NCBI GenBank assembly: GCA_937894085.1
Contig: CALCSG010000217.1
Span: 2,199 to 66,198, forward strand
Origin: an uncultured Gammaproteobacteria bacterium
GTDB taxonomy: Bacteria; Pseudomonadota; Gammaproteobacteria; GCA-001735895
Length of the DNA: 64,000 nt
Reading direction: 5' to 3'
The translations under genes and the position numbers were made by a program. Below are positions 2,097 through 60,670 of the stretch, piece after piece (positions within the stretch are counted from its first letter, which is position 1; each line of letters begins with the position of its first letter). The notes under the pieces were generated by a model. It saw only the letters and a program-made list of their open reading frames with translations, made no database searches and was not told where the DNA came from.

Positions 2097-2342
2097 CTAA
2101 TGATCACACTTATCCATTTTCTCTTTTGATTTGGGTAACACCGATATGAGGAAGGTCGAGATCAGGATTATCGGTGACAGTAAGAGCAGGATAAAACCGA
2201 AAAACATGATGATATGCTGCAAATTCCAGATGTGGGGCACCACATGCATGGCGACCAGTATCAGCATAATACCGGCTGTAAAGAAGATAAGCGAAGCTGC
2301 CACTCCTTCGCGCATTGTTTGACAACCTAAGGTTAATAACAT
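2097..2342 (-). CDS. Small two-TM membrane protein, last gene of the cytochrome operon
   Basis: 81-aa ORF, strongly hydrophobic (two predicted helices), 30 bp downstream of the NapC/NirT-family gene on the same strand. Confidence 0.4.
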   Translation of the reverse strand: MLLTLGCQTMREGVAASLIFFTAGIMLILVAMHVVPHIWNLQHIIMFFGFILLLLSPIILISTFLISVLPKSKEKMDKCDH

Positions 2343-2372
2343 GCTTTTATCCTCAATCTATTTTTCTGATTT

Positions 2373-3020
2373 TTATTCATTTTCAGCCATTAGCTTTTTC
2401 GCTGTGCCTTTTTCCAGCCCGAACTCGAGCTCGATCATTTCATTCCAGGCAGCTCTTTTGAATGTTTTTTCATGCGGAACCTTGCGGTGTACCAGGTTGT
2501 AATGACATTCGATACAGCTTTTATCTTTAGCGTCTTCCAGGTGAATTTTACGGGTATCCGGACGATCACCGTAAATCGCCTCTTTAACATGACAGCGTTT
2601 ACAGGTTGCCGAGTCTCGATCTTTAAACCATTTCCTGGCTTCAAATGCTGCTTCTGGTAAATGCAGTGCATTCATCACGGGGTCATCATAGTTAGGGCCA
2701 AAAACAGCCCCTTTCACCTGCTTGATAACATCTTTACCTCCAATGAAATGATCCCAGGTTGCCGATATCACTCCTTCAGATACGTGACAGTCTCCACAAC
2801 TCGCCTGTACACCCGAACTGGGTTTGTAATGCTTCGACTCACGGTATGGCTCGGCAACAATTCCCATGGAATGGCAGGTCGTACAAAATTCTTCACTGCT
2901 GGTGTAATGATCAAACTCAATCAGGAAAAGAATGAACACAATACCTGCTATACCTCCAACTAACAGGGCAAACAGAACATGGCGGGTTATAAATGCGGGT
3001 AAAGGTAATTTAATCTTCAT
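2373..3020 (-). CDS. NapC/NirT/NrfH-family membrane-anchored tetraheme cytochrome c (quinol dehydrogenase)
   Basis: 215 aa with an N-terminal TM helix and four CxxCH motifs (CTTCH, CGDCH, CKRCH, CIECH) at NapC/NirT-like spacing. Overlaps the upstream octaheme gene by 11 bp. Confidence 0.85.
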   Translation of the reverse strand: MKIKLPLPAFITRHVLFALLVGGIAGIVFILFLIEFDHYTSSEEFCTTCHSMGIVAEPYRESKHYKPSSGVQASCGDCHVSEGVISATWDHFIGGKDVIKQVKGAVFGPNYDDPVMNALHLPEAAFEARKWFKDRDSATCKRCHVKEAIYGDRPDTRKIHLEDAKDKSCIECHYNLVHRKVPHEKTFKRAAWNEMIELEFGLEKGTAKKLMAENE

Positions 3021-4464
3021 TGCCTTTTCCCTGCCCGAAACCCAGTATAGGATTCGCTTTTTGCGGATGATTTAACCAGTCATGATGCTCTGAACCATTG
3101 ATATGCTTTTTGATCAGCGCATCACCTTTCTCTTTTCCAGCAACTTCACGTATCTGGGCTAGAAATTTTCCGTAAAAATCACTGCCCAGATCACTCATGC
3201 CTTTCCAGGTTGAACTGGGACTGCCCATCGCGGCACCATGCCTGGCCAGCGTTCCATGTGTATGCCACAGATTCCAGTAGGTGACTTCTAATGGTTCATC
3301 GAAAGGAAGAGGGGTCAACAGGCCTGCAGAATATAGATCCTGCATGATTGCCTGTGCAGGCTTGCCATATTTTTCATTATAAAGCTCGACCACATTATCA
3401 AATTGTGACATGGCATTTTCGCTAAACCCCTTACTGTGGCATTCCAGACAGGTTTTTGTCATCGCACCTCTGCGACGTTTAGGCGATGCAACAGCCTTAA
3501 CCTTGCCCATACTACCATCCATTTTTGAAATGCTTTCGCCACGTCCCGGTAAAGGCTCGGAGGTTGATAGTTCGCGTTTATCACCATCTTCAAAAATTAT
3601 TAAATATTGCTGTTCTGACACAGCTGAATTCAGGTTCCACGAGTCACGCATTCCAACATCGTGAGTGGATTTCATTTTTCCTGCAGCGCCCATATGACAG
3701 GTAACACAGGTAGGTGCAGCCGAATAATCCTGTCCTGCTACCCATTGATCACTGTCCATATTCATGTCTTTTTTATGTGCTTCATACATCATGCCATGCT
3801 TTGAAGTTTCATAAACTTCCTTATCGGGTGAATCGGGGCCGGAGTGACAATAAATACAGGCCTGTGGTTCACGCGCCTGTGCTTTGGAAAATGTATGCCG
3901 GCCATGACAGGCAGAACAGGAACCGACAGATCCATCAGGGTTAATTCGTCCAATACCTGAATTAGGCCAGGTGGATGGATCGAGTGAACCGTCACCACGT
4001 ACTTTAACTTCAGATCCATGGCACTTTGCACAACCCGCATCATTGATCGAAGGACTGCCAAAATGTTGAGAAAGTGCAGGCATACGGTTTTTAATAATTG
4101 ATAGAGCTTTGGTATGCACAGAACCTTTCTGTTGTTTTAATTCAGTTTCATGACAACGCCCGCAATCTTTGGGTGACACGATGGTAGCAATAATACTGCC
4201 TTCATGTTCGATAGCATCGATGTCTTCTTCATAAGCCTGATGACAATCCAGACAGTTAACATTAGCTGCCGCATGTGCACTGTTTTTCCATTGATGGGTT
4301 AATCCTGCCGAGGACCTGGCATGACAATCTACACAGGCTTTTCCTTCTTCACTACCCCAGGTACTGGAGTCCAGTGTTACTTTATCAGCCACAGCAGACG
4401 CCGAGAATAACAGGATAAATATGACTGTAAAAGCTGATAAAGGGGTCTGTGTAAAAGGCTTCAC
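3010..4464 (-). CDS. Octaheme c-type cytochrome, hydroxylamine-oxidoreductase (HAO) family-like, periplasmic
   Basis: 484 aa with a signal peptide and eight CxxCH motifs (CVDCH, CLDCH, CGRCH, CAKCH, CSACH, CIYCH, CVTCH, CLECH). No CxxCK. Coupled to a NapC/NirT (CycB-like) gene, as seen for HAO-family octahemes. Confidence 0.65.
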   Translation of the reverse strand: MKPFTQTPLSAFTVIFILLFSASAVADKVTLDSSTWGSEEGKACVDCHARSSAGLTHQWKNSAHAAANVNCLDCHQAYEEDIDAIEHEGSIIATIVSPKDCGRCHETELKQQKGSVHTKALSIIKNRMPALSQHFGSPSINDAGCAKCHGSEVKVRGDGSLDPSTWPNSGIGRINPDGSVGSCSACHGRHTFSKAQAREPQACIYCHSGPDSPDKEVYETSKHGMMYEAHKKDMNMDSDQWVAGQDYSAAPTCVTCHMGAAGKMKSTHDVGMRDSWNLNSAVSEQQYLIIFEDGDKRELSTSEPLPGRGESISKMDGSMGKVKAVASPKRRRGAMTKTCLECHSKGFSENAMSQFDNVVELYNEKYGKPAQAIMQDLYSAGLLTPLPFDEPLEVTYWNLWHTHGTLARHGAAMGSPSSTWKGMSDLGSDFYGKFLAQIREVAGKEKGDALIKKHINGSEHHDWLNHPQKANPILGFGQGKGNED

Positions 4465-4489
4465 TGCATTACTCCACTATTATTATTTT

Positions 4490-4525
4490 TAGTTATATTA
4501 AAACAGCCCCATTTAAGGGGCTAAA
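4490..4525 (-). terminator. Hairpin (agcccc-atttaa-ggggct), terminator/attenuator-like between cytochrome b and the HAO-like gene
   Basis: 6-bp GC stem at 4505-4510/4517-4522, followed on the minus strand by GTTTTAAT. Sits in the 92-bp gap between two minus-strand genes. Confidence 0.3.
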
Positions 4526-4556
4526 TTCAATTGCTGGTATTAATAAATATTTCTAA

Positions 4557-5156
4557 TTATTCTTTCTCAAAACCGAAAATCATTGCTTTGAGGTATCCAA
4601 GAAATTCATCACTGGTGGTCAAAGCCAGATACAGATGAACGATAAGAAATGCTAACAACATAAAAGCCATTGCGGTATGAATCAGCGCAATCACTAACAG
4701 GCTAACATCCCCAAGACCAATCATTGGCCAGTAAGGATAAAAAAAGTAGAGCAGACCACTTAGTACCGCAAATGGAAGCATAAAGATATGCAATGACAGG
4801 TATGCCATGCGCTGCATGGGATTTAGCTTTGAGCGTCTGGTTTTATGGTGAGGATGTTCACTACCACCAATAAATATATCCACCCCGTAATACTTCACCA
4901 TCGCTAACAATTTATTCATATTGGCAGGAATATATTGCTTCCACTCGCCGGTAACCATGTGCCAGAAAATACCCAGAAACCAGATGGCTATCAAAGACCA
5001 GGCAGCTACGATGTGAATATCAACCGCTTTTTCAAAGCCAAAAAAATCAAAAGTATCATGAATCTCAAAACCAGTTACCAGTAAGGTAATTACCAGTAAC
5101 CCCTGAGACCAGTGCCAGATCCGCTCGAAGCGGGTATACATCATGACTTCTTTCAT
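4557..5156 (-). CDS. Dihaem cytochrome b membrane subunit (Ni/Fe-hydrogenase-type cytochrome b / PhsC/CybB family)
   Basis: 199 aa with four TM helices. N-terminal RFERIWHWSQ motif and conserved His positions typical of PF01292-type cytochrome b. Start overlaps the upstream octaheme gene stop (ATGA). Confidence 0.8.
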   Translation of the reverse strand: MKEVMMYTRFERIWHWSQGLLVITLLVTGFEIHDTFDFFGFEKAVDIHIVAAWSLIAIWFLGIFWHMVTGEWKQYIPANMNKLLAMVKYYGVDIFIGGSEHPHHKTRRSKLNPMQRMAYLSLHIFMLPFAVLSGLLYFFYPYWPMIGLGDVSLLVIALIHTAMAFMLLAFLIVHLYLALTTSDEFLGYLKAMIFGFEKE

Positions 5157-37580: not shown

Positions 37581-39452
37581 TTAATGCTGTAAGTTGACGA
37601 TTTCATCAGCATCATCTTCATCAAGCTGCACACTACGTAAGGCGGCTTTAAAATCACTATCACCTTTCGTAAACAGTACTTCTCCCATTTGCACGAGATT
37701 TCTTGCCACGTCATAGGCATAAGCAGAGTCGTTCATCAGTGAGGTTGCCATTCTGGCAGTGATCCGGCCTTCCCGGATTAGACGTTCGATGGTGTCATTA
37801 ACCATGCGGTCATGTTCTTCCATTTCAAGTTTAATCACATCCATCAACAGCATTTCTCCCATATCATCTTCATCTTTTCTGATATTCTCCAGTCTGCGCA
37901 TAACCGAACCAAGTCCAGCTCGTATCTTGTTATATTCCTCGCGGATATACTGGTTATCGGAGGCTATGTACTGAACAAGATTACCATGCATATGTTTGGT
38001 ATCTTTGATGGCTTCTACTATGTCCCGGCCTGCCGCCCTTAGCATGAATAACTCGTCGGCCTGTTGCTCCGACATGTTCAGGGAAGACTTACTGATAAAA
38101 CTGACAATCTCACTATATAAATCCTTGATCTTGTTATCATATTCATCATCCATATCGATACTCATCGGCTTACCAGGTTTATCGGCTATATCTTCCAGAC
38201 TATCTTCTGACAAAATATCATGGCGATGCAGGCTCAGCCCGTGGGCAATAATTGCGAAAGCATTTTCATACAGGTGTACGGTTTCTTTACGCACGGATTC
38301 CAGCGCGGTATCCGGCAACTCAAAGGCAGACTCGTTCAGATACATTGGCTCCGCTTCGGCAATTGTTTTATCAGGCATCAAGCGGGTAACCAGACGCACC
38401 AGTGGATTAACCAGCGGTATCATGATGATGACGCCCGCAACATTGAATATGGTGTGGAATACGGCAAGTTTAAGCGTGTAGTCAGTTGGTGCGAGACCAA
38501 TAATGTCTGAGATGACATCAACCAGCCAGGTAATTTGATTGATCATCAGTATAAATACAATCCCGGCCGACACCTTAAACAAAACATCTGACAGGGCCAG
38601 TCGCTTGCCATCTGTATTGGATGTCAGAGAACCCAGTATGGCAGTGATAGTGGTACCTACGTTGGCACCTATAACCAGTGCCAGCGCGTTATCATAGGTC
38701 AGTTGCTGCACCGACAGTGCGGTTATGACCAGTACCAGTGTGGCGTGGCTTGACTGCATGATAATGGTGGCCAGTATTCCAATCAGGGTAAATACCAGCA
38801 ACCCGGCAAAACCTTCCATTGCGTAGTCAGTCAGGTTGATTTGAGTCTGGAATGTCTCAAAACCTTCTTTCATGTGGTGAATACCCAGAAAAAGGAACCC
38901 CAGTCCAGCCAGGATGTAACCAAACCCTTTTAACGATTTAGATTTCTGGAACACCAGCACCACGCCAAACACCAGCATCGGCATTGCGTAGGCAGAGATT
39001 TTTACCTTTAAACCAAAACCCGCAATGAGCCAGGCGCCGGTCGTGGTACCAACATTGGCACCAAAGATAATACCCATACCCTGTACCAGCCCAATAAGAC
39101 CTGCACTTAGAAAAGAGATAGTAATAACGGATACAAGAGAGCTGGACTGCATGATGGTCGCAGCAGTAAAACCAAAGGACAGGCTTTTCCACATTTTGTT
39201 AGTGCTTTTACGCAATACTTTTTCCAGCGTGCCGCCGGTAAATGCCCGGAATCCCTCTTCCAGTGAAAACATTCCAAATAGAAAGATAGCGACACCCGCT
39301 GCTATTTCCTTGAAATTAGGACTAATCCAGAACCCATAGGCGAGGATGACAAGCATTGTCGGCAAGATTATTTTTTTTAGCATATTCCAGTATTTCTCAT
39401 AATTAAAGATGTAATTAAACGCAGATAATAAACGAAGGTTGGTAGACTTCAA
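37581..39452 (-). CDS. Na+/phosphate cotransporter family protein (NptA/YjbB-like) with C-terminal PhoU-like domain
   Basis: 623 aa. Duplicated GANVGTT motifs in the TM region and a C-terminal soluble PhoU-like helical domain. Confidence 0.85.
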   Translation of the reverse strand: MKSTNLRLLSAFNYIFNYEKYWNMLKKIILPTMLVILAYGFWISPNFKEIAAGVAIFLFGMFSLEEGFRAFTGGTLEKVLRKSTNKMWKSLSFGFTAATIMQSSSLVSVITISFLSAGLIGLVQGMGIIFGANVGTTTGAWLIAGFGLKVKISAYAMPMLVFGVVLVFQKSKSLKGFGYILAGLGFLFLGIHHMKEGFETFQTQINLTDYAMEGFAGLLVFTLIGILATIIMQSSHATLVLVITALSVQQLTYDNALALVIGANVGTTITAILGSLTSNTDGKRLALSDVLFKVSAGIVFILMINQITWLVDVISDIIGLAPTDYTLKLAVFHTIFNVAGVIIMIPLVNPLVRLVTRLMPDKTIAEAEPMYLNESAFELPDTALESVRKETVHLYENAFAIIAHGLSLHRHDILSEDSLEDIADKPGKPMSIDMDDEYDNKIKDLYSEIVSFISKSSLNMSEQQADELFMLRAAGRDIVEAIKDTKHMHGNLVQYIASDNQYIREEYNKIRAGLGSVMRRLENIRKDEDDMGEMLLMDVIKLEMEEHDRMVNDTIERLIREGRITARMATSLMNDSAYAYDVARNLVQMGEVLFTKGDSDFKAALRSVQLDEDDADEIVNLQH

Positions 39453-39722
39453 TATTAGAAAGCATTAAAAAGCAATAACTGGGCCAATAATTGGACTTAA
39501 CAATTAATTCCTTAAATAACAATAACTTATCTTAATACTTTAAGTAAAAAGAAAGGAGTAAGGGGGTGTAACCAAATGAATAAGTTCTTAACACATATTC
39601 AATGAATAAACTGATCAAAAAAGGTTACCTAAGAGCTTAAGACCTTTATCAGATCTATAAAGGCCAAAAACTGTGACAGCAGAAAAAGGGGTAATAAGAT
39701 AACGAGCTAAACTATCATTTGG

Positions 39723-40052
39723 TTACAGTGACCGATCTTTACAAAATCTGTAATACAGATGCAGAGCATTAATCACTAAATAGTTTTGGCTCTTTCGCCT
39801 TTGTTGCTGGATATTCGAAACCACAGGAGGTCTTTCAGGGGCACCATCAGTAACAGAAACGAGAGCCATAATAATCAACAGCAGCAAAATAAAAATTGTT
39901 TTTTTAAGATTTTGAATCTCTTTATTTTCTCGTTTTTCACGGTTAGACCGGTCACTCATTGTTTTACTAATTGGATTACTTATTGGTTTACTTATTGGTT
40001 TACTTATTGGTTTACTTATTGGTTTACTTAAATCACTAGTTGTATTCATCAT
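39723..40052 (-). CDS. Small membrane protein with N-terminal (KPIS)n tandem repeats, sigma-54-dependent
   Basis: 109 aa. KPISKPISKPISKPISNPISK encoded by a 12-bp DNA tandem repeat, then a basic segment and one TM helix. A sigma-54 promoter lies 28 nt upstream. Confidence 0.5.
   Translation of the reverse strand: MMNTTSDLSKPISKPISKPISKPISNPISKTMSDRSNREKRENKEIQNLKKTIFILLLLIIMALVSVTDGAPERPPVVSNIQQQRRKSQNYLVINALHLYYRFCKDRSL
39959..40030. repeat. 12-bp tandem repeat (TTGGTTTACTTA) x ~6, in-frame within the small ORF
   Basis: Four perfect and two degenerate copies. Encodes (S/K)PIS repeats on the minus strand. Confidence 0.8.
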
Positions 40053-40089: not shown

Positions 40090-40106
40090 AAGCAATAATT
40101 GCTCCA
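40090..40106 (-). promoter_or_regulatory. Sigma-54 (RpoN) -24/-12 promoter: TGGAGC-N5-TTGCT
   Basis: Minus-strand sequence TGGAGCAATTATTGCTT matches TGGCAC-N5-TTGCW with GG and GC at the canonical spacing. It sits about 40 nt upstream of the ATG of the repeat-protein gene and directly downstream of an NtrC-family activator gene. Confidence 0.6.
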
Positions 40107-40369: not shown

Positions 40370-41803
40370 CTATTCTTCATTATTATGCAAACGTGCCAGC
40401 CGACGATTCAAAGCTGGACGGGAAATCCCGAGCAACGTGGCTGCCACCCCCTGATTACCATTGGCTCGCTGCATCGCTTCACGTACCAGGCAGGTATCTG
40501 CCTGGTTGAGCGTAGGGAATTGTCCCGGTATCTGTAGCAGGTTGTTGTTTTCAAGCTTGCTCGTTTCGGTTTTCCGGGCGGGCATAATCTGCTGCTGTTT
40601 TTCAACCGCATTTCTGAATCGATCGAGAGAAAGTATCGAGCCGGATCGATGGGTAGCGACGGCATCAAAAACCAACGCCCTGAGCTCCCGAATATTACCA
40701 GCAAAGTGATATATTCCCAGCAAGTCATACAGTTCCGGAGGGGCGACCAGGTCATCTTTTCCCATAGATTTTGCTGCATCTACCACAAACCGTTTAACCA
40801 GTAAGGGTAAATCTTCCCGTCTATCACGCAATGGCAAAAGTTCAATCTGATGTACTGACAGGCGAAAATATAGATCAGAACGAAAATCATCGTCCAGCAT
40901 ACGTTGATGGAGATTTCTATTAGTTGCACAGATAATGCGTACATCACTGTTAATGCTAATATCCGAACCCAGTGGGTTATACCTTTTTTCCTGTAGCAGG
41001 CGTAACAATTTAATCTGTGATGCGTGAGATAACTCTCCAATCTCATCCAGAAAAAGGGTACCGCCCACTGCTGCTGAAATCAGTCCTTTGCGGGTATCTG
41101 TAGCCCCGGTAAAGGCACCTTTCTTATGCCCGAAAAGGGTATCTGAAAACAGCGCGTCATCCAGCCCGGCGACATTAACGGGTATTAACTCACCAGTGAG
41201 ACCACTTAACTGATGGATTGTTCTGGCCAACAATTCCTTACCTACTCCGGTTTCGCCGGTGATTAACACGGGCTCATTTGAATTAGCGATAGCCTCTGCA
41301 TACTGGAAAACCGAGTGCATTTTTTTACTAACCGTATCGAAACAGCTGAATACCTGAGCATGCTCAAGCTTATTGGTTAACAGATAATCCTTCAGCACGT
41401 TAACCTGTCGTCGCAGAGAACGCATTTCTACAGCTCGCTTAACACTGGATATCAGTCGACTTTCCTCGACAGGTTTGACCAGATAGTCAAACGCACCCTG
41501 TTTCATACTTGATACAGCTGTTTCCACATCCTGCGCTGCCGTCATCACAATGACCGGAACCTCAGGATAACTTTTTATCAGAGCAGGCAATAAGTCGATT
41601 CCAGATATTTCAGGCATATACAGATCAAGCAAAATAACCGCGACTTCCTGCTGCTGAAGAAGCGGAAGCAAATCACGGCTATCCTGCAAGGTAATAACCG
41701 GTTTTAACCCGGCACCCGATAACAGCAATTTTGAACTATGCAGTACCGTGGATTCATCATCCACCAGTACCAGAGGAAGCTCGGTGGAAGCTTGATAACT
41801 CAT
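40370..41803 (-). CDS. Sigma-54-dependent response regulator (NtrC family: REC - AAA+ - Fis-type HTH)
   Basis: 477 aa. Receiver domain with a D-containing acidic pocket, GETGVGKELLARTIH Walker A, a GAFTGA-like sigma-54 interaction region, and a C-terminal HTH. Confidence 0.9.
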   Translation of the reverse strand: MSYQASTELPLVLVDDESTVLHSSKLLLSGAGLKPVITLQDSRDLLPLLQQQEVAVILLDLYMPEISGIDLLPALIKSYPEVPVIVMTAAQDVETAVSSMKQGAFDYLVKPVEESRLISSVKRAVEMRSLRRQVNVLKDYLLTNKLEHAQVFSCFDTVSKKMHSVFQYAEAIANSNEPVLITGETGVGKELLARTIHQLSGLTGELIPVNVAGLDDALFSDTLFGHKKGAFTGATDTRKGLISAAVGGTLFLDEIGELSHASQIKLLRLLQEKRYNPLGSDISINSDVRIICATNRNLHQRMLDDDFRSDLYFRLSVHQIELLPLRDRREDLPLLVKRFVVDAAKSMGKDDLVAPPELYDLLGIYHFAGNIRELRALVFDAVATHRSGSILSLDRFRNAVEKQQQIMPARKTETSKLENNNLLQIPGQFPTLNQADTCLVREAMQRANGNQGVAATLLGISRPALNRRLARLHNNEE

Positions 41804-42217
41804 CTATTTTGACTCCTGATAAACAGGTAAACGGATACTGACCACGGTTCCTGAGTCACTGGATGACTCAAAGTTTAAAGAGCCATGATGATTCTCTATG
41901 ATCGTACTGGATATGGATAATCCGAGGCCAGTACCACCGGATTCAAGACGGGTGGTGAAGAAAGGTTCTGTCACCCTTGCAATATCTTTATCGTCGATAC
42001 CGCTACCCTGATCCACTATACGGATCAATAAGAACTTACTTTCTGAATCAATCATTGACTCTACTCTGACAGCCTGATTTTTATTGGTCAGGGATTGTAG
42101 CGCATTCAGCATGACATTGATAAATACCTGCTCCAGTTGCTGAAAGTTACCTTTAATTATGGGAATATCCGCTGCAAGTTGAGTTACCCAATGATGAGTG
42201 TATTTGTGAACCTGATT
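41804..42217 (-). pseudogene. 3' portion of the sensor histidine kinase (N-box/G1/G2 HATPase_c domain), separated from the upstream portion only by an in-frame TGA
   Basis: The same reading frame as the upstream ORF continues through the TGA at 42218-42220: ...SASAIL*NQVHKYTHHWVTQLAADIPIIKGNFQQLEQVFINVMLNALQS...DQGSGI...GGTGLGLSI. Confidence 0.6.
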
Positions 42218-44383
42218 TCATAATATTGCAGATGCCGATCTGATTACCATATTAATATCAACATTTTCATTCAAATCACCTGGGTCATTTTTGCCGAGGC
42301 GCTTCAGGTTTTCTACGATCGCTTTGATGCGTCTGGAATTATCCTTGATTTCAGATATCAACTCTCCCAGCGCATCTCCTTCTTCGGCAAACGACAGGCC
42401 ACCCACAGAGAAGTCACCCTGCAGCTGATAATATTCTCTGAGCACCGGCATGGCGTCTTCCCACACATGACTGAACAGTGCCGCACCGGTCTGAATCGCA
42501 TTATTCGGATTATTGATTTCGTGCGCTACACCGGTGGCAAGCACCCCGATAGTAGCAAGACGGGCATTGCGGATGGCATGAGCCTGGAAATTTCTTTTTT
42601 CGGTAATATCCGTGGCAATCACCATGGCCGTTTGAACCTCATGTTTTTCCAGAATGGGGACTATCCTGATTTCCAGCCAGCTCGACTCATCATTGGTCGG
42701 GTACTGAAAATAACCCACTTCACCTTTTTGAAAAGCCTGTGCCAGTAACTGCCTGTAATCTTGCTGATAGTTAGCAGGCACTAAATCAGCAGATTGTATT
42801 TCCTCTCCACGAATACCGGAAAATTCCAGCGCGGCTCCACGGTTCATCATGAGTATTTTTCCTGCCCCGTTCACCGACATTATTCTGTCTGGCGACTGAT
42901 TGAAAATAACGCGTAATTTTTCTTCTGAATCTCGCAGGTCATCATCAGCCTGTTTTTTCTCGGTAATGTCTTCAGCGACTCCAACCAGTCTGTAGATGCT
43001 GCCGTTTTCATCACGTACCGGAAAAGCATTATCTCTAATCCAGCGTTGACTACCATCCGCTCGTCTAACCCGGTAAATTGCTTCCATTGAACCCGATCCT
43101 TTAACAGCATTATTCAACGCCTCTAACCATTGCCCCCGGTCATCAGCATGAATTGCACTGGAAAACAGTGCAGGATCTGCATACAGTTCTTCGCACTGAA
43201 TACCCCATAGCTTTTCGATAGCGGGACTGACATACAGAAAGTGACTTCTATCAACCGGCATTGCCCAGTAAACATCATCAACCGTTTCGCTCATTTGCCA
43301 TAACAGTTGCTCCCGGTCTTTTAGTAACTGGTCTATTTTCTGGCGTTCCTGCAGGCCAAGTTTCATCCTGAGCAGAAAAGTGGATAAAAGCAGGGTAAGC
43401 AGGATACCGGTAAAAAGCACAGCAACCGGTGCTTTTTCAAAAGCCTCAGCACTGCGAAAATGTTCATTTGCCGCAGCCGTAATCGTCCATTTCCTGTCGC
43501 CCATTAAAACGACTTCAGAAAGAAAATTTTTACGATGCATCAGCCATTCCTGTATCTGGGGTTCCCCAAACTCTCTGGCCGAATTCAGCCGACTGGAATA
43601 ATATTCCAGAAAACGGGAGTCGATATCAGCATTATCATCCTGGATCAGCACATCAACCCCGCGCGGTTCCAGGTAACTGATCGCCGCATGAGCCAGCTCA
43701 TCCAGCTTCAACACTGCCACAACAAACCCGCTTAAGCTGGCAGATTCCTGCTCAAATCCTGGCGTAAATGTTGATTTTTCGGAAATGCCGGAATACAGCG
43801 GATGACAGGCGATGATTACATATTTATCATCGTTCGCACTGGATAGTTTTAACCGTCCACTGACTGTCATCTCGCCAGTTTGCATTGCTTTGAATATCGT
43901 TTCACTGAGAATTGAGCCCGGTATAATCCTGTATCCTGGTTGAAACCGGTTACTCCCCCGATTCTCTGCAAAAGTCAGACTGGAAAATGCCCCCGGTAAG
44001 CTGTTAGCCTGCAGCTGAACAGAGCCCTTGTAGCTGCTATCATCAGCAACGACCAGGCCAATCATTTCTATACCTGGATTTCGCTCAAGCAATGGCATTA
44101 CAACCCGATGAAATTGATCAGCAGTGATCGATTCAATAGACTGTACATAATCTCCAGTCATCCTGACCGGTTCCAGCGCACTTTCAAAACCCAGTTTTAA
44201 CAGACGGTTACGATTATGAGCAACCCAGCTAAATTCATTATCTCTTTGTATGCCGAACTGTTTGTTGACAACCCAGAAAGCAGCCGCGGTAAACGAAAAC
44301 CCCAATAAAGCAATCAGCCATATCACCAGATGCTCACTCACAAGATGCTGAATAAATTTTACAATCTGGCCGAAATTTTTCAT
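42218..44383 (-). CDS. Sensor histidine kinase, 5' portion: TM - periplasmic CHASE-like domain - TM - 2xPAS - HisKA (H-box VAHEINNP); truncated by an in-frame stop
   Basis: 721-aa ORF ending 40 codons after the H-box, with no ATP-binding domain in this ORF. Confidence 0.75.
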   Translation of the reverse strand: MKNFGQIVKFIQHLVSEHLVIWLIALLGFSFTAAAFWVVNKQFGIQRDNEFSWVAHNRNRLLKLGFESALEPVRMTGDYVQSIESITADQFHRVVMPLLERNPGIEMIGLVVADDSSYKGSVQLQANSLPGAFSSLTFAENRGSNRFQPGYRIIPGSILSETIFKAMQTGEMTVSGRLKLSSANDDKYVIIACHPLYSGISEKSTFTPGFEQESASLSGFVVAVLKLDELAHAAISYLEPRGVDVLIQDDNADIDSRFLEYYSSRLNSAREFGEPQIQEWLMHRKNFLSEVVLMGDRKWTITAAANEHFRSAEAFEKAPVAVLFTGILLTLLLSTFLLRMKLGLQERQKIDQLLKDREQLLWQMSETVDDVYWAMPVDRSHFLYVSPAIEKLWGIQCEELYADPALFSSAIHADDRGQWLEALNNAVKGSGSMEAIYRVRRADGSQRWIRDNAFPVRDENGSIYRLVGVAEDITEKKQADDDLRDSEEKLRVIFNQSPDRIMSVNGAGKILMMNRGAALEFSGIRGEEIQSADLVPANYQQDYRQLLAQAFQKGEVGYFQYPTNDESSWLEIRIVPILEKHEVQTAMVIATDITEKRNFQAHAIRNARLATIGVLATGVAHEINNPNNAIQTGAALFSHVWEDAMPVLREYYQLQGDFSVGGLSFAEEGDALGELISEIKDNSRRIKAIVENLKRLGKNDPGDLNENVDINMVIRSASAIL

Positions 44384-48036: not shown

Positions 48037-49125
48037 ATGTCTTTTTTAATGAAACGCTACCATTCACCCGGTACCTCGCCCGGCACCCTGCACAAGGCGC
48101 ATAAAATTCAGGGTGCCCCGCTCAAAATCACCCTGATTGATTACACTGATAGTGAATTTTTAGAGAAGACAATAGACCAGCCTGAAGAGTGCAGGGACTA
48201 CCTGGATCGCGCTACGATTACCTGGATACATGTACAGGGCGATGCAGAACCCGACACCATGCACCAGCTGGGCAACCTGTTTAACCTGCATCAGCTGGCG
48301 CTGGAAGATGTGATCAATACCGGGCAACGACCGAAGGTGGATGACTACAAGGATCAGTTGTTTGTCGTGATGTCACATCCGTTGATTGAAAATGTCGATG
48401 GCGGAAACGCTAAAATAAGCGTTGCCCAGTTAAGCCTGTTTGTGGGTAAAAACTTTGTCATCAGTTTTCATCCCGGTGCTAATGACCCGTTTAATCCGGT
48501 GCGCCTGCGCCTGCGTGATGCGGTAGGACGTATCCGTCAGCGTGGTTCCGACTACTTGCTCTACGCGTTACTGGACCTGGTGATTGATGAAGGTTTTCCG
48601 GTGCTTGAGAATCTGGGCGATGAAATTGAACAGCTGGAAGAAGAATTGCTTGATGTGCCTACTCGTAACTCCCTGCGCCAGTTGCACCATCTCAAACGCA
48701 CCCTGCTCATTGTACGGCGCATGTTATGGCCTCAGCGCGAAGTGCTGAATAGCCTGGTACGGGATGACAGTGGTCTGATCGAGGAACAGAATCAGATTTA
48801 TTACCGGGATTGTTACGATCACACAATACAGATCATGGACCTCATCGAAACCTACCGGGATATGGTCACGGGCCTGCTGGATATCTATCATTCCAGCGTA
48901 AGTTATCGTCTGAATGAAGTGATGCGGGTGTTAACTATTATCGCCACTATCTTTATTCCGCTTACCTTTATTGTTGGTGTGTACGGAATGAATTTCAGCA
49001 ATGAAAGCAGCCCCTGGTCGATGCCGGAATTACGCTGGTATTATGGTTACCCGCTGGTATGGGTGCTGATGATAGTGATCGTCGGCTTTATGCTGTATTA
49101 TTTCCGGCGCAAAAAATGGTTTTAA
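48037..49125 (+). CDS. corA: CorA-family Mg2+/Co2+ transporter
   Basis: 362 aa. YGMNF motif (VGVYGMNFSNE) before the last TM pair. Confidence 0.9.
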   Translation: MSFLMKRYHSPGTSPGTLHKAHKIQGAPLKITLIDYTDSEFLEKTIDQPEECRDYLDRATITWIHVQGDAEPDTMHQLGNLFNLHQLALEDVINTGQRPKVDDYKDQLFVVMSHPLIENVDGGNAKISVAQLSLFVGKNFVISFHPGANDPFNPVRLRLRDAVGRIRQRGSDYLLYALLDLVIDEGFPVLENLGDEIEQLEEELLDVPTRNSLRQLHHLKRTLLIVRRMLWPQREVLNSLVRDDSGLIEEQNQIYYRDCYDHTIQIMDLIETYRDMVTGLLDIYHSSVSYRLNEVMRVLTIIATIFIPLTFIVGVYGMNFSNESSPWSMPELRWYYGYPLVWVLMIVIVGFMLYYFRRKKWF

Positions 49126-52157: not shown

Positions 52158-53789
52158 ATGTTTAGATTTTTCCAGGAAATGGAGGATGCCGCAGAAACCT
52201 CCAGTAAGGCTAATTTTATCAAATATGGTATTGTCATTATCTTCATGATAGCGGTACTTATCCTGAGCTTTAACTCTATGGGTGAGTTACCGACGAATGT
52301 ATTCCTTGTTATAGCAGCACTGTTTGGTGCCTATATGGCAATGAATATCGGCGCAAATGATGTCGCTAATAATGTCGGCCCGGCAGTGGGTTCAAAAGCC
52401 CTTACACTCGTAGGTGCCATCATTATCGCGGCTATATTTGAAGCTGGTGGAGCTTTTATCGCCGGTGGCGATGTCGTGGGTACCATTAAAAATGGCATTA
52501 TTGATATAAAGGCTTTCCATGGCGATGTGAATAGCTTTATCTGGGCCATGATGGCGGCACTTCTCGCGGCAGGTTTATGGTTAAACCTGGCAACTAAATT
52601 TAAAGCACCTGTTTCTACCACTCATGCAATTGTGGGTGGCGTGATGGGAGCGGGTATTGCGGCAGGCGGGTTTTCCATCGTTTCCTGGGGAACCATGGGA
52701 GAAATTGCAGCTTCATGGGTTATCTCACCAGTACTGGGTGGCATCATAGCGGCAGCATTTTTATTTTCTATTAAGAAATCCATGGTTTTTAAAGAAGATA
52801 AAGTAAACGCAGGTAAGTTTTGGGTTCCAGTTTATGTCGCTATTATGACATGGGCATTTGCCACTTATCTCACCTTAAAAGGTCTTAAGCAAATATGGCC
52901 CAAAATTGTCGATATCCTGCCATTTCTGCCAGATGAGAAGAAGCCCAGTTTTATGATTGCATCTATTATTGGCCTGATTCTCGCGGTAATTGTTTTCTTC
53001 GTTGTTAGAAGGAGCGTATCACTGAAACAAAACCTGAAAAACGATAGAGCCAGTATCAATACTTTATTTACCGTTCCGCTCATCTTTGCAGCTGCATTGT
53101 TGAGTTTTGCACATGGAGCGAATGATGTCGCGAATGCGATTGGACCACTGGCTGCGATTAGTGATGCGGTCAATACGGGAGGCATTGCTTCGAAGGCGAG
53201 CATTCCATTCTGGGTGATGGCCGTTGGCGCACTCGGTATTGTTGTTGGCCTGGCATTATATGGTCCTAAGTTGATTAAAACGGTCGGTTCAGAAATAACA
53301 GAACTGGATCAGATGAGGGCTTTTTCGGTCGCTATGGCCGCTGCGGTCACGGTCATTGTGGCCAGTCAGCTTGGGCTGCCGGTAAGTTCTACACATATTG
53401 CCATTGGTGGTATCTTCGGTGTGGGTTTCTTACGGGAATATTTACAGGGCCATAAGGAAGTCATTAAACTGGATGAAGAAGAAAGAAGACTGGTGAAAGA
53501 AGAAAACAAGCTGGAGCAATTCCGCGAAAATCTTCAGGAATTATTAGATCTGCCTGATGACAAGAAAGATAAAAAAGTTTACAAGCAAATCGGTAAACTT
53601 TACGAGATGGTAGAGCATGAAGAAAGAATTCTAGAAGAAGAACAGCGTATTGTTAGTACTTTACAAAGGAAAAAATATGTAAAAAGAGATGCCTTTAAAA
53701 AGATTATTATGGCATGGATTATTACAGTTCCTGTTGCCGCAGTTCTTTCCGCGTGTATTTACTACATGATTAGAGGCATGATGCTTTAA
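52158..53789 (+). CDS. Inorganic phosphate transporter, PiT family, with a long charged cytoplasmic loop
   Basis: 543 aa. Duplicated GANDVAN signatures (GANDVANNVGPAVGS; GANDVANAIGPLAA). Confidence 0.9.
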   Translation: MFRFFQEMEDAAETSSKANFIKYGIVIIFMIAVLILSFNSMGELPTNVFLVIAALFGAYMAMNIGANDVANNVGPAVGSKALTLVGAIIIAAIFEAGGAFIAGGDVVGTIKNGIIDIKAFHGDVNSFIWAMMAALLAAGLWLNLATKFKAPVSTTHAIVGGVMGAGIAAGGFSIVSWGTMGEIAASWVISPVLGGIIAAAFLFSIKKSMVFKEDKVNAGKFWVPVYVAIMTWAFATYLTLKGLKQIWPKIVDILPFLPDEKKPSFMIASIIGLILAVIVFFVVRRSVSLKQNLKNDRASINTLFTVPLIFAAALLSFAHGANDVANAIGPLAAISDAVNTGGIASKASIPFWVMAVGALGIVVGLALYGPKLIKTVGSEITELDQMRAFSVAMAAAVTVIVASQLGLPVSSTHIAIGGIFGVGFLREYLQGHKEVIKLDEEERRLVKEENKLEQFRENLQELLDLPDDKKDKKVYKQIGKLYEMVEHEERILEEEQRIVSTLQRKKYVKRDAFKKIIMAWIITVPVAAVLSACIYYMIRGMML

Positions 53790-58981: not shown

Positions 58982-60670
58982 TCACTTTTTATGCCGATAC
59001 GCGTCCAGCACCTCTTCCAGCGTATTGAAGTAGGCATGTTTGCCAAATGCCTTGCGCAACGCATGGTGATTCTCCTGCCTGACGTCTTGCGGAATTTGCG
59101 CAATCACCAGGCGTATATCCTTTTCTTGCAATATTTGATGAATCGAACGCAGCGTTTTAGTCGCAGTATAATCGATATCATCCACCGCTGAGGCATCCAG
59201 ACAAAACCAGTGTAACGGGGGTTTTGAGTCATTCACGAGGGCAGTTATTTCCTCCGACAACTGTTGGGCGTTAGCATAGTAGATGCTGTGGGTGAAGCGG
59301 TAGATGACTAACCCGGGTAGCGCCTGGGCTTTGTCAGCAACTGGGCGTGCACGTAGAATACCCGACTTGCCTGGCACCAGCAGGGCGTTCTTCGGCTGAT
59401 AACCACGCCGAGTATGATCGATCAGCGACAGTACGATGGCGAGTATGATGCCGTCTTCCACACCCACGAACACAACCATCAGCAAGGTGATCATCGCCAC
59501 CCAGAACTCCGATGGACGCTGCTTGAGGATACTGTGCATGCCTTTCAGATCGACCAGTTCGATACCGATTAGAAATACCACTGCCGATAAAACCGCTTCA
59601 GGCATAAAAGCCAGTGGTGCTGTAAGAAAAAGCAGAACCAGTAACACAATAAGCGCAGTGAAAATCAGCGATAGCTGGCTACGCCCACCGGCGCTGTCGA
59701 CCATCTGGGTCTTGGTCGGGCTACCGTTGACGACAAAGGTACCGGACAGGCCGGCGCCTATATTTGCCAGCCCCAGACCGGTGAGATCGATGTTAGCGCT
59801 GAAGCGTTCGTTATAGCGTGCGGCATAAGCTCGCGAGGTTGCCGCACTCTGCGCCAGGATGACAACGAACATGGCAAATGCAGTGGGCACCAGTTTTTGC
59901 AGAAGTTCCCAGCTCCACTTGACCTCCGGCAGCCCGATATGAGGCAGGCCGCTCGGGACGGCTCCCAGTACATGCATGTGTTTACTGAAATCGAGCGCCC
60001 AGCTTAGAATAATTGCACCCACTACTGCAATCAGTGCGCCCGGTATCCTGTGTGAAATTTTTCTCGACGTGACAATAATCAGCAGCACACTGAGCGCAAC
60101 GGCAAGTGCATAGAAGTTGACCTGCCCGATGCTCTGAACATCTTCCCAGATCTTTGACAGTGTGCCATGACCGCCACCTTTCAGGCCAAGCATGCCGGAC
60201 ACTTCTCCCAGTGCGACCTGGATTCCGACCCCCGACAGGAAACCGATCAGTACCGTTCGCGACATGAAATCCGCCATGAAGCCCAGCCCGATAAAACGCG
60301 CCAGAAACAGGAATCCTGCCGCCATCAGGGCAAGAACCCCGGCCAGTGCCAGGTATTCGTCTGAACCGGTAGCAGCAATCCCCACCAGCCCGGCGGCCAG
60401 GATGGTTGCGGTAGCTGAATCGGCACCAACCACAAGATGGCGCGATGAACAGAAAATAGCGAACAGAAACATCGGAATGAGCATGGTATACAAGCCGGTA
60501 ATCACCGGTGTTCCGGCGATCTTGGTGTAACCCATCACCTCGGGTATAGCCAGCGCGGCCAACGTGATGCCGGCAATAATTTCCGCCGGGATCTGACTGC
60601 TGTTGATGGGCAGCACTCCCTGGAGGAAAGGAATTCTGAAAAACTCAAACTTGCTTTTTATAGTTGTCAT
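58982..60670 (-). CDS. SulP-family anion transporter with C-terminal STAS domain
   Basis: 562 aa. SulP TM core plus a STAS domain. Confidence 0.9.
   Translation of the reverse strand: MTTIKSKFEFFRIPFLQGVLPINSSQIPAEIIAGITLAALAIPEVMGYTKIAGTPVITGLYTMLIPMFLFAIFCSSRHLVVGADSATATILAAGLVGIAATGSDEYLALAGVLALMAAGFLFLARFIGLGFMADFMSRTVLIGFLSGVGIQVALGEVSGMLGLKGGGHGTLSKIWEDVQSIGQVNFYALAVALSVLLIIVTSRKISHRIPGALIAVVGAIILSWALDFSKHMHVLGAVPSGLPHIGLPEVKWSWELLQKLVPTAFAMFVVILAQSAATSRAYAARYNERFSANIDLTGLGLANIGAGLSGTFVVNGSPTKTQMVDSAGGRSQLSLIFTALIVLLVLLFLTAPLAFMPEAVLSAVVFLIGIELVDLKGMHSILKQRPSEFWVAMITLLMVVFVGVEDGIILAIVLSLIDHTRRGYQPKNALLVPGKSGILRARPVADKAQALPGLVIYRFTHSIYYANAQQLSEEITALVNDSKPPLHWFCLDASAVDDIDYTATKTLRSIHQILQEKDIRLVIAQIPQDVRQENHHALRKAFGKHAYFNTLEEVLDAYRHKK

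Follow-up and report, generated by a model that had tools for sequence, protein, structure and literature searches.

The interrupted kinase gene

The window analyzed here is a 64-kb stretch of DNA (64,000 nucleotides, contig CALCSG010000217.1) from an uncultivated gammaproteobacterium, and the element under study is a sensor histidine kinase gene interrupted by an in-frame TGA. On the minus strand, positions 41804–44383 form 860 codons from an ATG at 44383 to a TAG at 41804, and translation of this frame revealed one internal stop. The stop is codon 722, a TGA at 42220–42218 flanked by INMVIRSASAIL and NQVHKYTHHWVTQLAADIPIIKGNFQQLEQVFINVMLNALQS, with the residues RSASAIL before it and NQVHKYTHHWVTQ after it, and the base following the TGA is A (UGA-A context). 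In the list of open reading frames (ORFs), the gene appeared as a same-frame pair of 721 amino acids (aa; 42218–44383) and 102 aa (41804–42112), and the segment 42113–42220 consists of the TGA and 35 sense codons ahead of the first downstream ATG. The parts of the gene are as follows.

42218..44383, minus strand: upstream ORF, 721 aa, with an N-terminal transmembrane (TM) helix, CHASE, a second TM helix, PAS_3, PAS_4, and DHp/HisKA
42218..42220, minus strand: in-frame TGA, codon 722 (from translation and orthologue alignment)
41804..42217, minus strand: continuation of the kinase frame after the stop, 137 sense codons and TAG
41804..42112, minus strand: 102-aa ORF of the gene callers, starting at an internal Met (MLNALQS...)

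When the read-through translation was compared with Pfam, CHASE (85–252), PAS_3 (383–470), and PAS_4 (494–597) were located before the stop, as was a weak HisKA match (615–702; 20.5 bits, under the cut-off of 26.9), and HATPase_c (PF02518; 748–855, E = 2.8e-20) was located wholly after it. The 721-aa ORF ends with the first strand and half a helix of the catalytic domain. The post-stop segment codes for the rest of the ATP-binding domain, in which the N (QQLEQVFINVMLNAL), G1 (DQGSGI), F (EPFFTT), and G2 (GGTGLGL) boxes are intact and all invariant columns are kept. The dimerization and histidine-phosphotransfer (DHp) domain has its phospho-acceptor His in an H-box, AHEINNPNN, that is invariant among orthologues. 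Of the solved structures, LvrB (8vc9, E = 6.8e-21) came nearest to the kinase core, together with ZraS of E. coli (9jfj, E = 7.2e-18), and the alignment to both spans the H-box. This is consistent with a ZraS/NtrB/AtoS-type kinase working with a sigma-54 activator. The one uninterrupted frame through the DHp and catalytic domains that a functional sensor kinase has is broken here by the TGA at codon 722.

Orthologues were searched in 5.8 billion protein clusters using the read-through translation as the query. Approximately 40 clear orthologues were obtained, with lengths of 820–880 aa, 36–66% identity, and 97–100% query coverage, and their CHASE-PAS-PAS-kinase architecture is the same as that of the window gene. 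The homologues carried the names of Sedimenticola sp., bivalve and tubeworm symbionts, Candidatus Thiodiazotropha, and Sedimenticolaceae, which points to a putative gammaproteobacterial source close to Sedimenticolaceae. A protein scan of the genome contigs returned distant relatives only, whose identity over the C-terminal 257 aa did not exceed 54%. Thirty aligned orthologues showed 33–69% identity over the pre-stop part and were 820–880 aa long where complete. None of these thirty had a stop or a gap at the TGA column. The codon was always sense, as a comparison proposed in the preliminary description could establish, and the residues found were Lys (10), Gly (11), Ser, Ala, His (4), and Asp (3). 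The Leu beside this column and the downstream I, K, and T positions were invariant or nearly so. In the nearest orthologue loci, the codon is AAA (L098, encoding the orthologue P0002) and GGC (L099, encoding P0007). TGA is one substitution away from GGA, AGA, CGA, and TCA, and the residues encoded by these codons are in or close to the set seen in the column.

Colinearity with the orthologues begins at their start codon. Because uninterrupted orthologues could be matched in the same order to both sides of the stop (E = 0), the alignment identifies the two ORFs as one ancestral kinase gene and not as a chance juxtaposition. The preliminary description had read the pair as one kinase gene with one nonsense codon, and both the order of the Pfam domains and the colinear, uninterrupted orthologues agree with it. 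An in-frame stop with colinearity to intact orthologues on either side is also one mark of a pseudogene by nonsense mutation. A six-frame scan of the 64 kb for stops with at least 90 open codons on either side returned this TGA and five other sites; none of the other five was a domain-splitting stop, as they were same-frame ORF boundaries or overlapping non-gene ORFs.

Recurrent truncation of the family was considered on account of a 690-aa homologue without HATPase_c (P0031), and it was rejected, as the P0031 locus (L017) has a frameshift further upstream. In that locus (2280–4850, Logan assembly of SRR28385528), the kinase core and HATPase_c run on in another frame up to the regulator gene. 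The P0031 lesion is either a second, independent inactivation of the kinase family or an assembly error confined to one Logan run. Separately, the P0007 locus (L099, 2955–5529) has a shorter CHASE-HisKA-HATPase_c kinase and a stand-alone receiver directly upstream of the orthologous kinase. The window is without such a pair, and the upstream neighbors there are a divergently transcribed HlyD-like protein and an ABC-2 transporter operon.

The stop codon in independent assemblies

The split gene was traced in public assemblies by exact look-up of its products, and the codon was read at the level of the assembly consensus. TGA was present at codon 722 in all of the related loci inspected (16/16), which represent approximately ten assemblies from a number of separate sequencing runs. 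The 102-aa ORF was accompanied by the 721-aa ORF, either identical or with one residue changed, in the run assemblies ERR2206789, ERR2206774, and ERR2206756 of PRJEB22997, the Baltic Sea reference metagenome project (PMC6067050). The same pair was found in ERZ1283791, ERZ1283888, ERZ1283824, ERZ27059977, and ERZ23486368 (scaffold name ALNE18-1), as well as in the Logan assemblies of ERR2206789 and SRR11600248. The gene calls of ERZ27060321, which lies outside the 16 loci, were likewise split into 721 and 102 aa. The assemblies differed in type, comprising MEGAHIT k141 and k127 contigs, a scaffolded assembly, and Logan assemblies, and one run was from a Sequence Read Archive (SRA) submission outside PRJEB22997.

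Compared with the window, the other contigs showed 0–2 single-nucleotide polymorphisms (SNPs) over 2.5–14 kb, and three assemblies had a tandem repeat that was 24 nt shorter. Since the SNPs and the 24-nt indel set these contigs apart, they are not copies of the window. Two SNPs were found relative to the other assemblies, and the population was otherwise clonal over up to 14 kb. In ERZ1283791, the SNP at 42628 replaces an Ala of the second PAS domain with Thr. At the other site, 44600, which is intergenic and upstream of the kinase, the window differs from the five other assemblies covering it.

The exact 721-aa protein was located on 12 contigs in NCBI and ENA, the longest being 81,740 bp, and its cluster at 90% identity had two members, both of 721 aa. 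No full-length allele of this population was present among approximately 15 billion proteins. An exact-pattern scan with NNN at the codon had no match in the GTDB species representatives or the JGI metagenomes and was uninformative on sense alleles. The preliminary description had named a sense codon at this site as the observation that would overturn the nonsense codon; it was looked for at the assembly-consensus level, and none was found. As judged from the assembly consensus, the lesion is not an artefact of one assembly, which is a further mark of a pseudogene. The stop is genuine and reproducible, and the allele is fixed, at the consensus level, in a near-clonal Baltic Sea population of an uncultivated gammaproteobacterium. 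This also indicates that allele look-up in independent metagenome assemblies can take the place of reads when a sequencing error is suspected.

Position and age of the lesion

The position of the stop in the fold was determined from an AlphaFold2 model of P0002, the closest orthologue (33 aligned sequences, mean pLDDT 76). In this model, the last DHp helix ends at residue 697 and is followed by a short, low-confidence linker. The catalytic domain then opens with a strand (706–708) and a helix (710–728, pLDDT of approximately 90). In the alignment, the TGA corresponds to K722, midway along the 710–728 helix. According to the model, the stop lies inside the first catalytic-domain helix, not in the inter-domain linker, and the 721-aa product is predicted to end 16 residues into the catalytic domain, without the N, G1, F, and G2 boxes. 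The preliminary description had assigned the codon to an unconserved linker; the alignment bears out the variability of the residue, and it is the placement in a linker that the model contradicts.

The age of the lesion was evaluated by comparing the segments before and after the stop. The ratio of post-stop to pre-stop identity to the orthologues was 1.048, compared with 1.02–1.09 in intact orthologues. At the 49 columns with at least 90% conservation, the post-stop segment departed twice, both times conservatively (I to V and L to I), and the intact orthologues departed 0–6 times. The nonsynonymous divergence (dN, Nei-Gojobori) from P0002 was 0.224 after the stop and 0.232 before it; the synonymous divergence (dS) from P0002 was saturated (at least 1.5), so dN/dS is of limited use. 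Thus, no excess divergence was observed downstream, in a comparison that spans the whole branch to the 66%-identical orthologue, so that a recent lesion would be invisible in it. The SNPs within the population (0–2 per contig) were too few to gauge selection after the mutation. These comparisons suggest that the catalytic domain was under purifying selection during almost the whole period after divergence from the nearest known relative. Since the post-stop codons share the purifying-selection signature of the rest of the gene, the lesion appears young relative to the orthologue divergence; the sequence would fit either a lesion that is recent compared with the divergence from the nearest orthologue or a segment that is still translated at some level.

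Taken as a whole, the genuine nonsense codon in this CHASE-PAS-PAS histidine kinase gene most likely represents a recent loss of function. Recent pseudogenization was one of the options raised in the preliminary description, and it is the best fit to a lesion that is fixed in a near-clonal population with no decay downstream. This is an ordinary kind of biology. In bacteria, genes that are intact apart from a single nonsense substitution are common.

The regulator module, consequences and related systems

The kinase adjoins an intact NtrC-type regulator, as the preliminary description had recognized, with the receiver, AAA+, and helix-turn-helix (HTH) motifs all present. The genes and promoter-like elements on this side of the kinase are listed below.

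40370..41803, minus strand: NtrC-type response regulator and sigma-54 activator, 477 aa, intact (sequence and Pfam)
40092..40106, minus strand: sigma-54-like -24/-12 box TGGAGCAATTATTGC, approximately 40 nt upstream of a small repeat ORF (ATG at 40052), a consensus match
39472..39486, minus strand: sigma-54-like -24/-12 box TGGCCCAGTTATTGC, approximately 90 nt upstream of the cotransporter ATG at 39383, a consensus match
37581..39383, minus strand: Na+/Pi cotransporter family gene, 600 aa (Pfam PF02690, E = 4.9e-48)

In the regulator, the LLDLYMP motif of the receiver holds the acceptor Asp, the AAA+ domain has Walker A (GETGVGKE), Walker B, and GAFTGA, and the HTH is of the Fis type. The regulator ATG comes straight after the TAG of the kinase, and its own Shine-Dalgarno sequence, AGGAG, lies within the 3' end of the kinase gene. 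The order of kinase, regulator, small ORF where present, and Na_Pi_cotrans is the same in the P0002 and P0007 loci. In the same intergenic space of these orthologous loci, near-identical or similar boxes were found, the counterparts of the box before the cotransporter being TGGCCCGATTATTGC in L098 (at 5894; nearly identical) and TGGTACCATCATTGC in L099 (at 10273). The shared arrangement suggests a conserved module of kinase, sigma-54 activator, and Na/Pi cotransporter, in which the regulator probably acts on the cotransporter gene.

A 109-aa ORF (39723–40052, minus strand) with no Pfam match separates the regulator from the cotransporter. A 12-nt tandem repeat in it (39954–40030, 6.4 copies) encodes KPIS peptide repeats. 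In three Baltic assemblies (L003/L103 and L100), the repeat is shorter by 24 nt, or two units, giving 101 aa, and this was the only length polymorphism seen in the population. Within 20 kb of the Na/Pi module are genes for a second phosphate transporter, of the PHO4/PiT family (52158–53789, plus strand), a CorA Mg2+ transporter (48037–49125, plus strand), and a SulP/STAS sulfate permease (58982–60670, minus strand). Given this wealth of ion transporters in the region, the affected module is probably not the sole basis of phosphate uptake.

With respect to the consequences, a sense codon would have changed to TGA in one step (from GGA, AGA, CGA, or TCA), 16 residues into the ATP-binding domain. 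Ordinary translation would yield 721 aa that comprise the sensor, PAS, and DHp parts and lack the ATP-binding domain. Because such a truncated kinase would be unable to autophosphorylate, the intact NtrC-type regulator would lose its cognate phosphodonor. The system would normally activate the cotransporter module from sigma-54 promoters, and in this population the activation may be lost or reduced. In HisKA kinases, the H-E-x-x-N motif is linked to phosphatase activity. The truncated protein keeps this motif and might still bind or dephosphorylate the regulator. Moreover, the 414 untranslated nt before the regulator start could add Rho-dependent polarity. The loss of function would be one more case of a two-component kinase lost in a free-living aquatic lineage, with an intact sigma-54 activator and its probable Na/Pi cotransporter target deprived of their cognate input. 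It could matter for phosphate handling by this Baltic population and does not change the general understanding.

Several points weigh against a simple loss of function. The evidence is at the level of the assembly consensus, and a minority sense allele is possible. The kinase-dead product, the orphaned regulator, and the polarity are all deduced from sequence, and the sigma-54 boxes were recognized by their consensus, matches to which are not above chance window-wide. The undecayed state of the 137 post-stop codons is equally expected from continued read-through translation. In E. coli, termination is comparatively weak at a UGA with A as the next base. Furthermore, many bacterial in-frame stops have been argued to be read through at a low level (PMC7918605, PMC9122581).

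Leaky termination was considered, in which a near-cognate tRNA such as tRNA-Trp sometimes decodes the UGA. A little full-length kinase would then still be made, and the stop would strongly lower the kinase level instead of abolishing it, a reading compatible with the loss of function proposed above. The UGA-A context, the intact post-stop codons, and the dN and conserved-column departures resembling those of intact orthologues are all consistent with it, and the persistence of the allele across many samples indicates that it is not strongly deleterious. In addition, in-frame stops are widespread in bacteria and often still under purifying selection (PMC7918605), and in Salmonella, protein at a low level was obtained from 101 of the 161 pseudogenes (PMC9122581). 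However, read-through in Salmonella occurred mainly at UAG followed by C, not at UGA-A (PMC9122581), no stimulatory RNA structure was found downstream of the stop (z = 0.19), and no recoding element of Rfam was detected. The population was also too clonal for selection after the mutation to be measured. Because no orthologue shares the stop, nothing points to programmed read-through, for which a stop common to orthologues and a downstream structure would be the marks; neither was found. Read-through had been another option of the preliminary description. It stands as a possible low-level event, not as a programmed one, and leaky termination as the account of this locus is considered unlikely.

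A further reading is that the UGA is read through at a few percent as a fixed attenuator, which keeps a trace of full-length kinase, or that the 721-aa product is kept as a dedicated phosphatase or sink for the regulator. If either were true, this population would have re-tuned, not destroyed, a regulatory module for phosphate transport. We regard this as quite improbable.

A natural split kinase was also evaluated, in which a catalytic fragment translated on its own would act in trans with the 721-aa sensor-DHp protein. Domain A and domain B of EnvZ, when engineered as separate proteins, can associate and work in trans. In the present case, the truncated product retains the H-box, and the 102-aa ORF was called as a separate HATPase_c protein downstream in all assemblies. 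However, after the stop the frame offers no ATG, GTG, or TTG other than the Met codon within the N-box helix (..INV-M-LNAL..), and a fragment starting there would be incomplete, lacking two strands, half of the N-box helix, the conserved Glu, and the first Asn. No suitably spaced Shine-Dalgarno sequence was found for this start, the nearest GGAG being 18 nt from the ATG of the 102-aa ORF, and no orthologue is split likewise. On the grounds of fold and start site, a split kinase built on the 102-aa ORF was rejected as very unlikely, and the 102-aa "HATPase_c protein" is most likely a gene-calling artefact, not a real gene. This artefact now sits in public protein collections; a correct annotation would show a single disrupted kinase gene in place of separate proteins of 721 and 102 aa.

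The preliminary description had also allowed for a sequencing or assembly error, with a sense codon in reality and an intact gene. A single-base substitution would suffice for this, and the source is plausibly metagenome-assembled. However, the same TGA was recovered in each of the 16 loci, by different runs, assemblers, and pipelines in every independent assembly inspected, on contigs that differ from the window elsewhere and hence are no copies of it. The error was thus rejected as highly improbable.

Recoding of the UGA, as selenocysteine or under a TGA-sense genetic code, is extremely improbable, even though UGA is the codon used by both kinds of recoding. Selenocysteine was rejected, as the 96 nt around and after the UGA folded at -10.7 kcal/mol, no better than shuffled sequences (z = 0.19) and with nothing like a selenocysteine insertion sequence (SECIS), no Rfam family reached its threshold (sub-threshold chance matches only), and Cys never occurred at the aligned position, a variable helix position occupied by K, G, S, A, H, and D. 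A TGA-sense code (table 4 or 25) was rejected, as TGA is a normal terminator in the window, where it ends 10 of the 44 ORFs (five as TGAA) and no other gene is broken by an in-frame stop. ORFs of up to 1634 aa are unbroken, the 1634-aa ORF being glutamate dehydrogenase. No tRNA gene was found in the 64-kb window.

Among known systems, the interrupted kinase gene resembles the bacterial "pseudo-pseudogenes" (Belinky et al. 2021, PMC7918605; Feng et al. 2022, PMC9122581), which likewise have one in-frame stop in a gene colinear with its orthologues. An undecayed downstream frame and possible low-level read-through are also shared. Unlike those cases, the present one is a population-wide metagenome consensus of an uncultivated organism known from DNA alone, and its stop is UGA-A, whereas UAG-C was the stop most often read through in Salmonella.

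The 721-aa product can also be compared with proteins that carry out phosphatase or phosphotransfer reactions and lack a catalytic domain, namely the engineered domain A of EnvZ and DHp proteins that lack a kinase domain, as it likewise retains the dimerization and histidine-phosphotransfer helices. The natural DHp-only proteins Spo0B and ChpT are the products of dedicated, conserved genes. In contrast to the DHp-only proteins, the product here would result from an accidental stop in the first catalytic helix, and its activity is putative.

A further comparison is with ZraS/ZraR, NtrB/NtrC, and AtoS/AtoC, in which a HisKA-type kinase with an H-box of the form HEIxNP is likewise paired with a sigma-54 enhancer-binding regulator. 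As in these systems, the partner has a receiver, an AAA+ domain with GAFTGA, and a Fis-HTH, and sigma-54-like boxes lie beside the operon. The present system differs in its sensor, which has CHASE and two PAS domains, and in its neighbor, which is an Na/Pi cotransporter gene instead of zraP, glnA, or ato. Moreover, unlike the kinases of these systems, the kinase here is truncated ahead of its ATP-binding domain.

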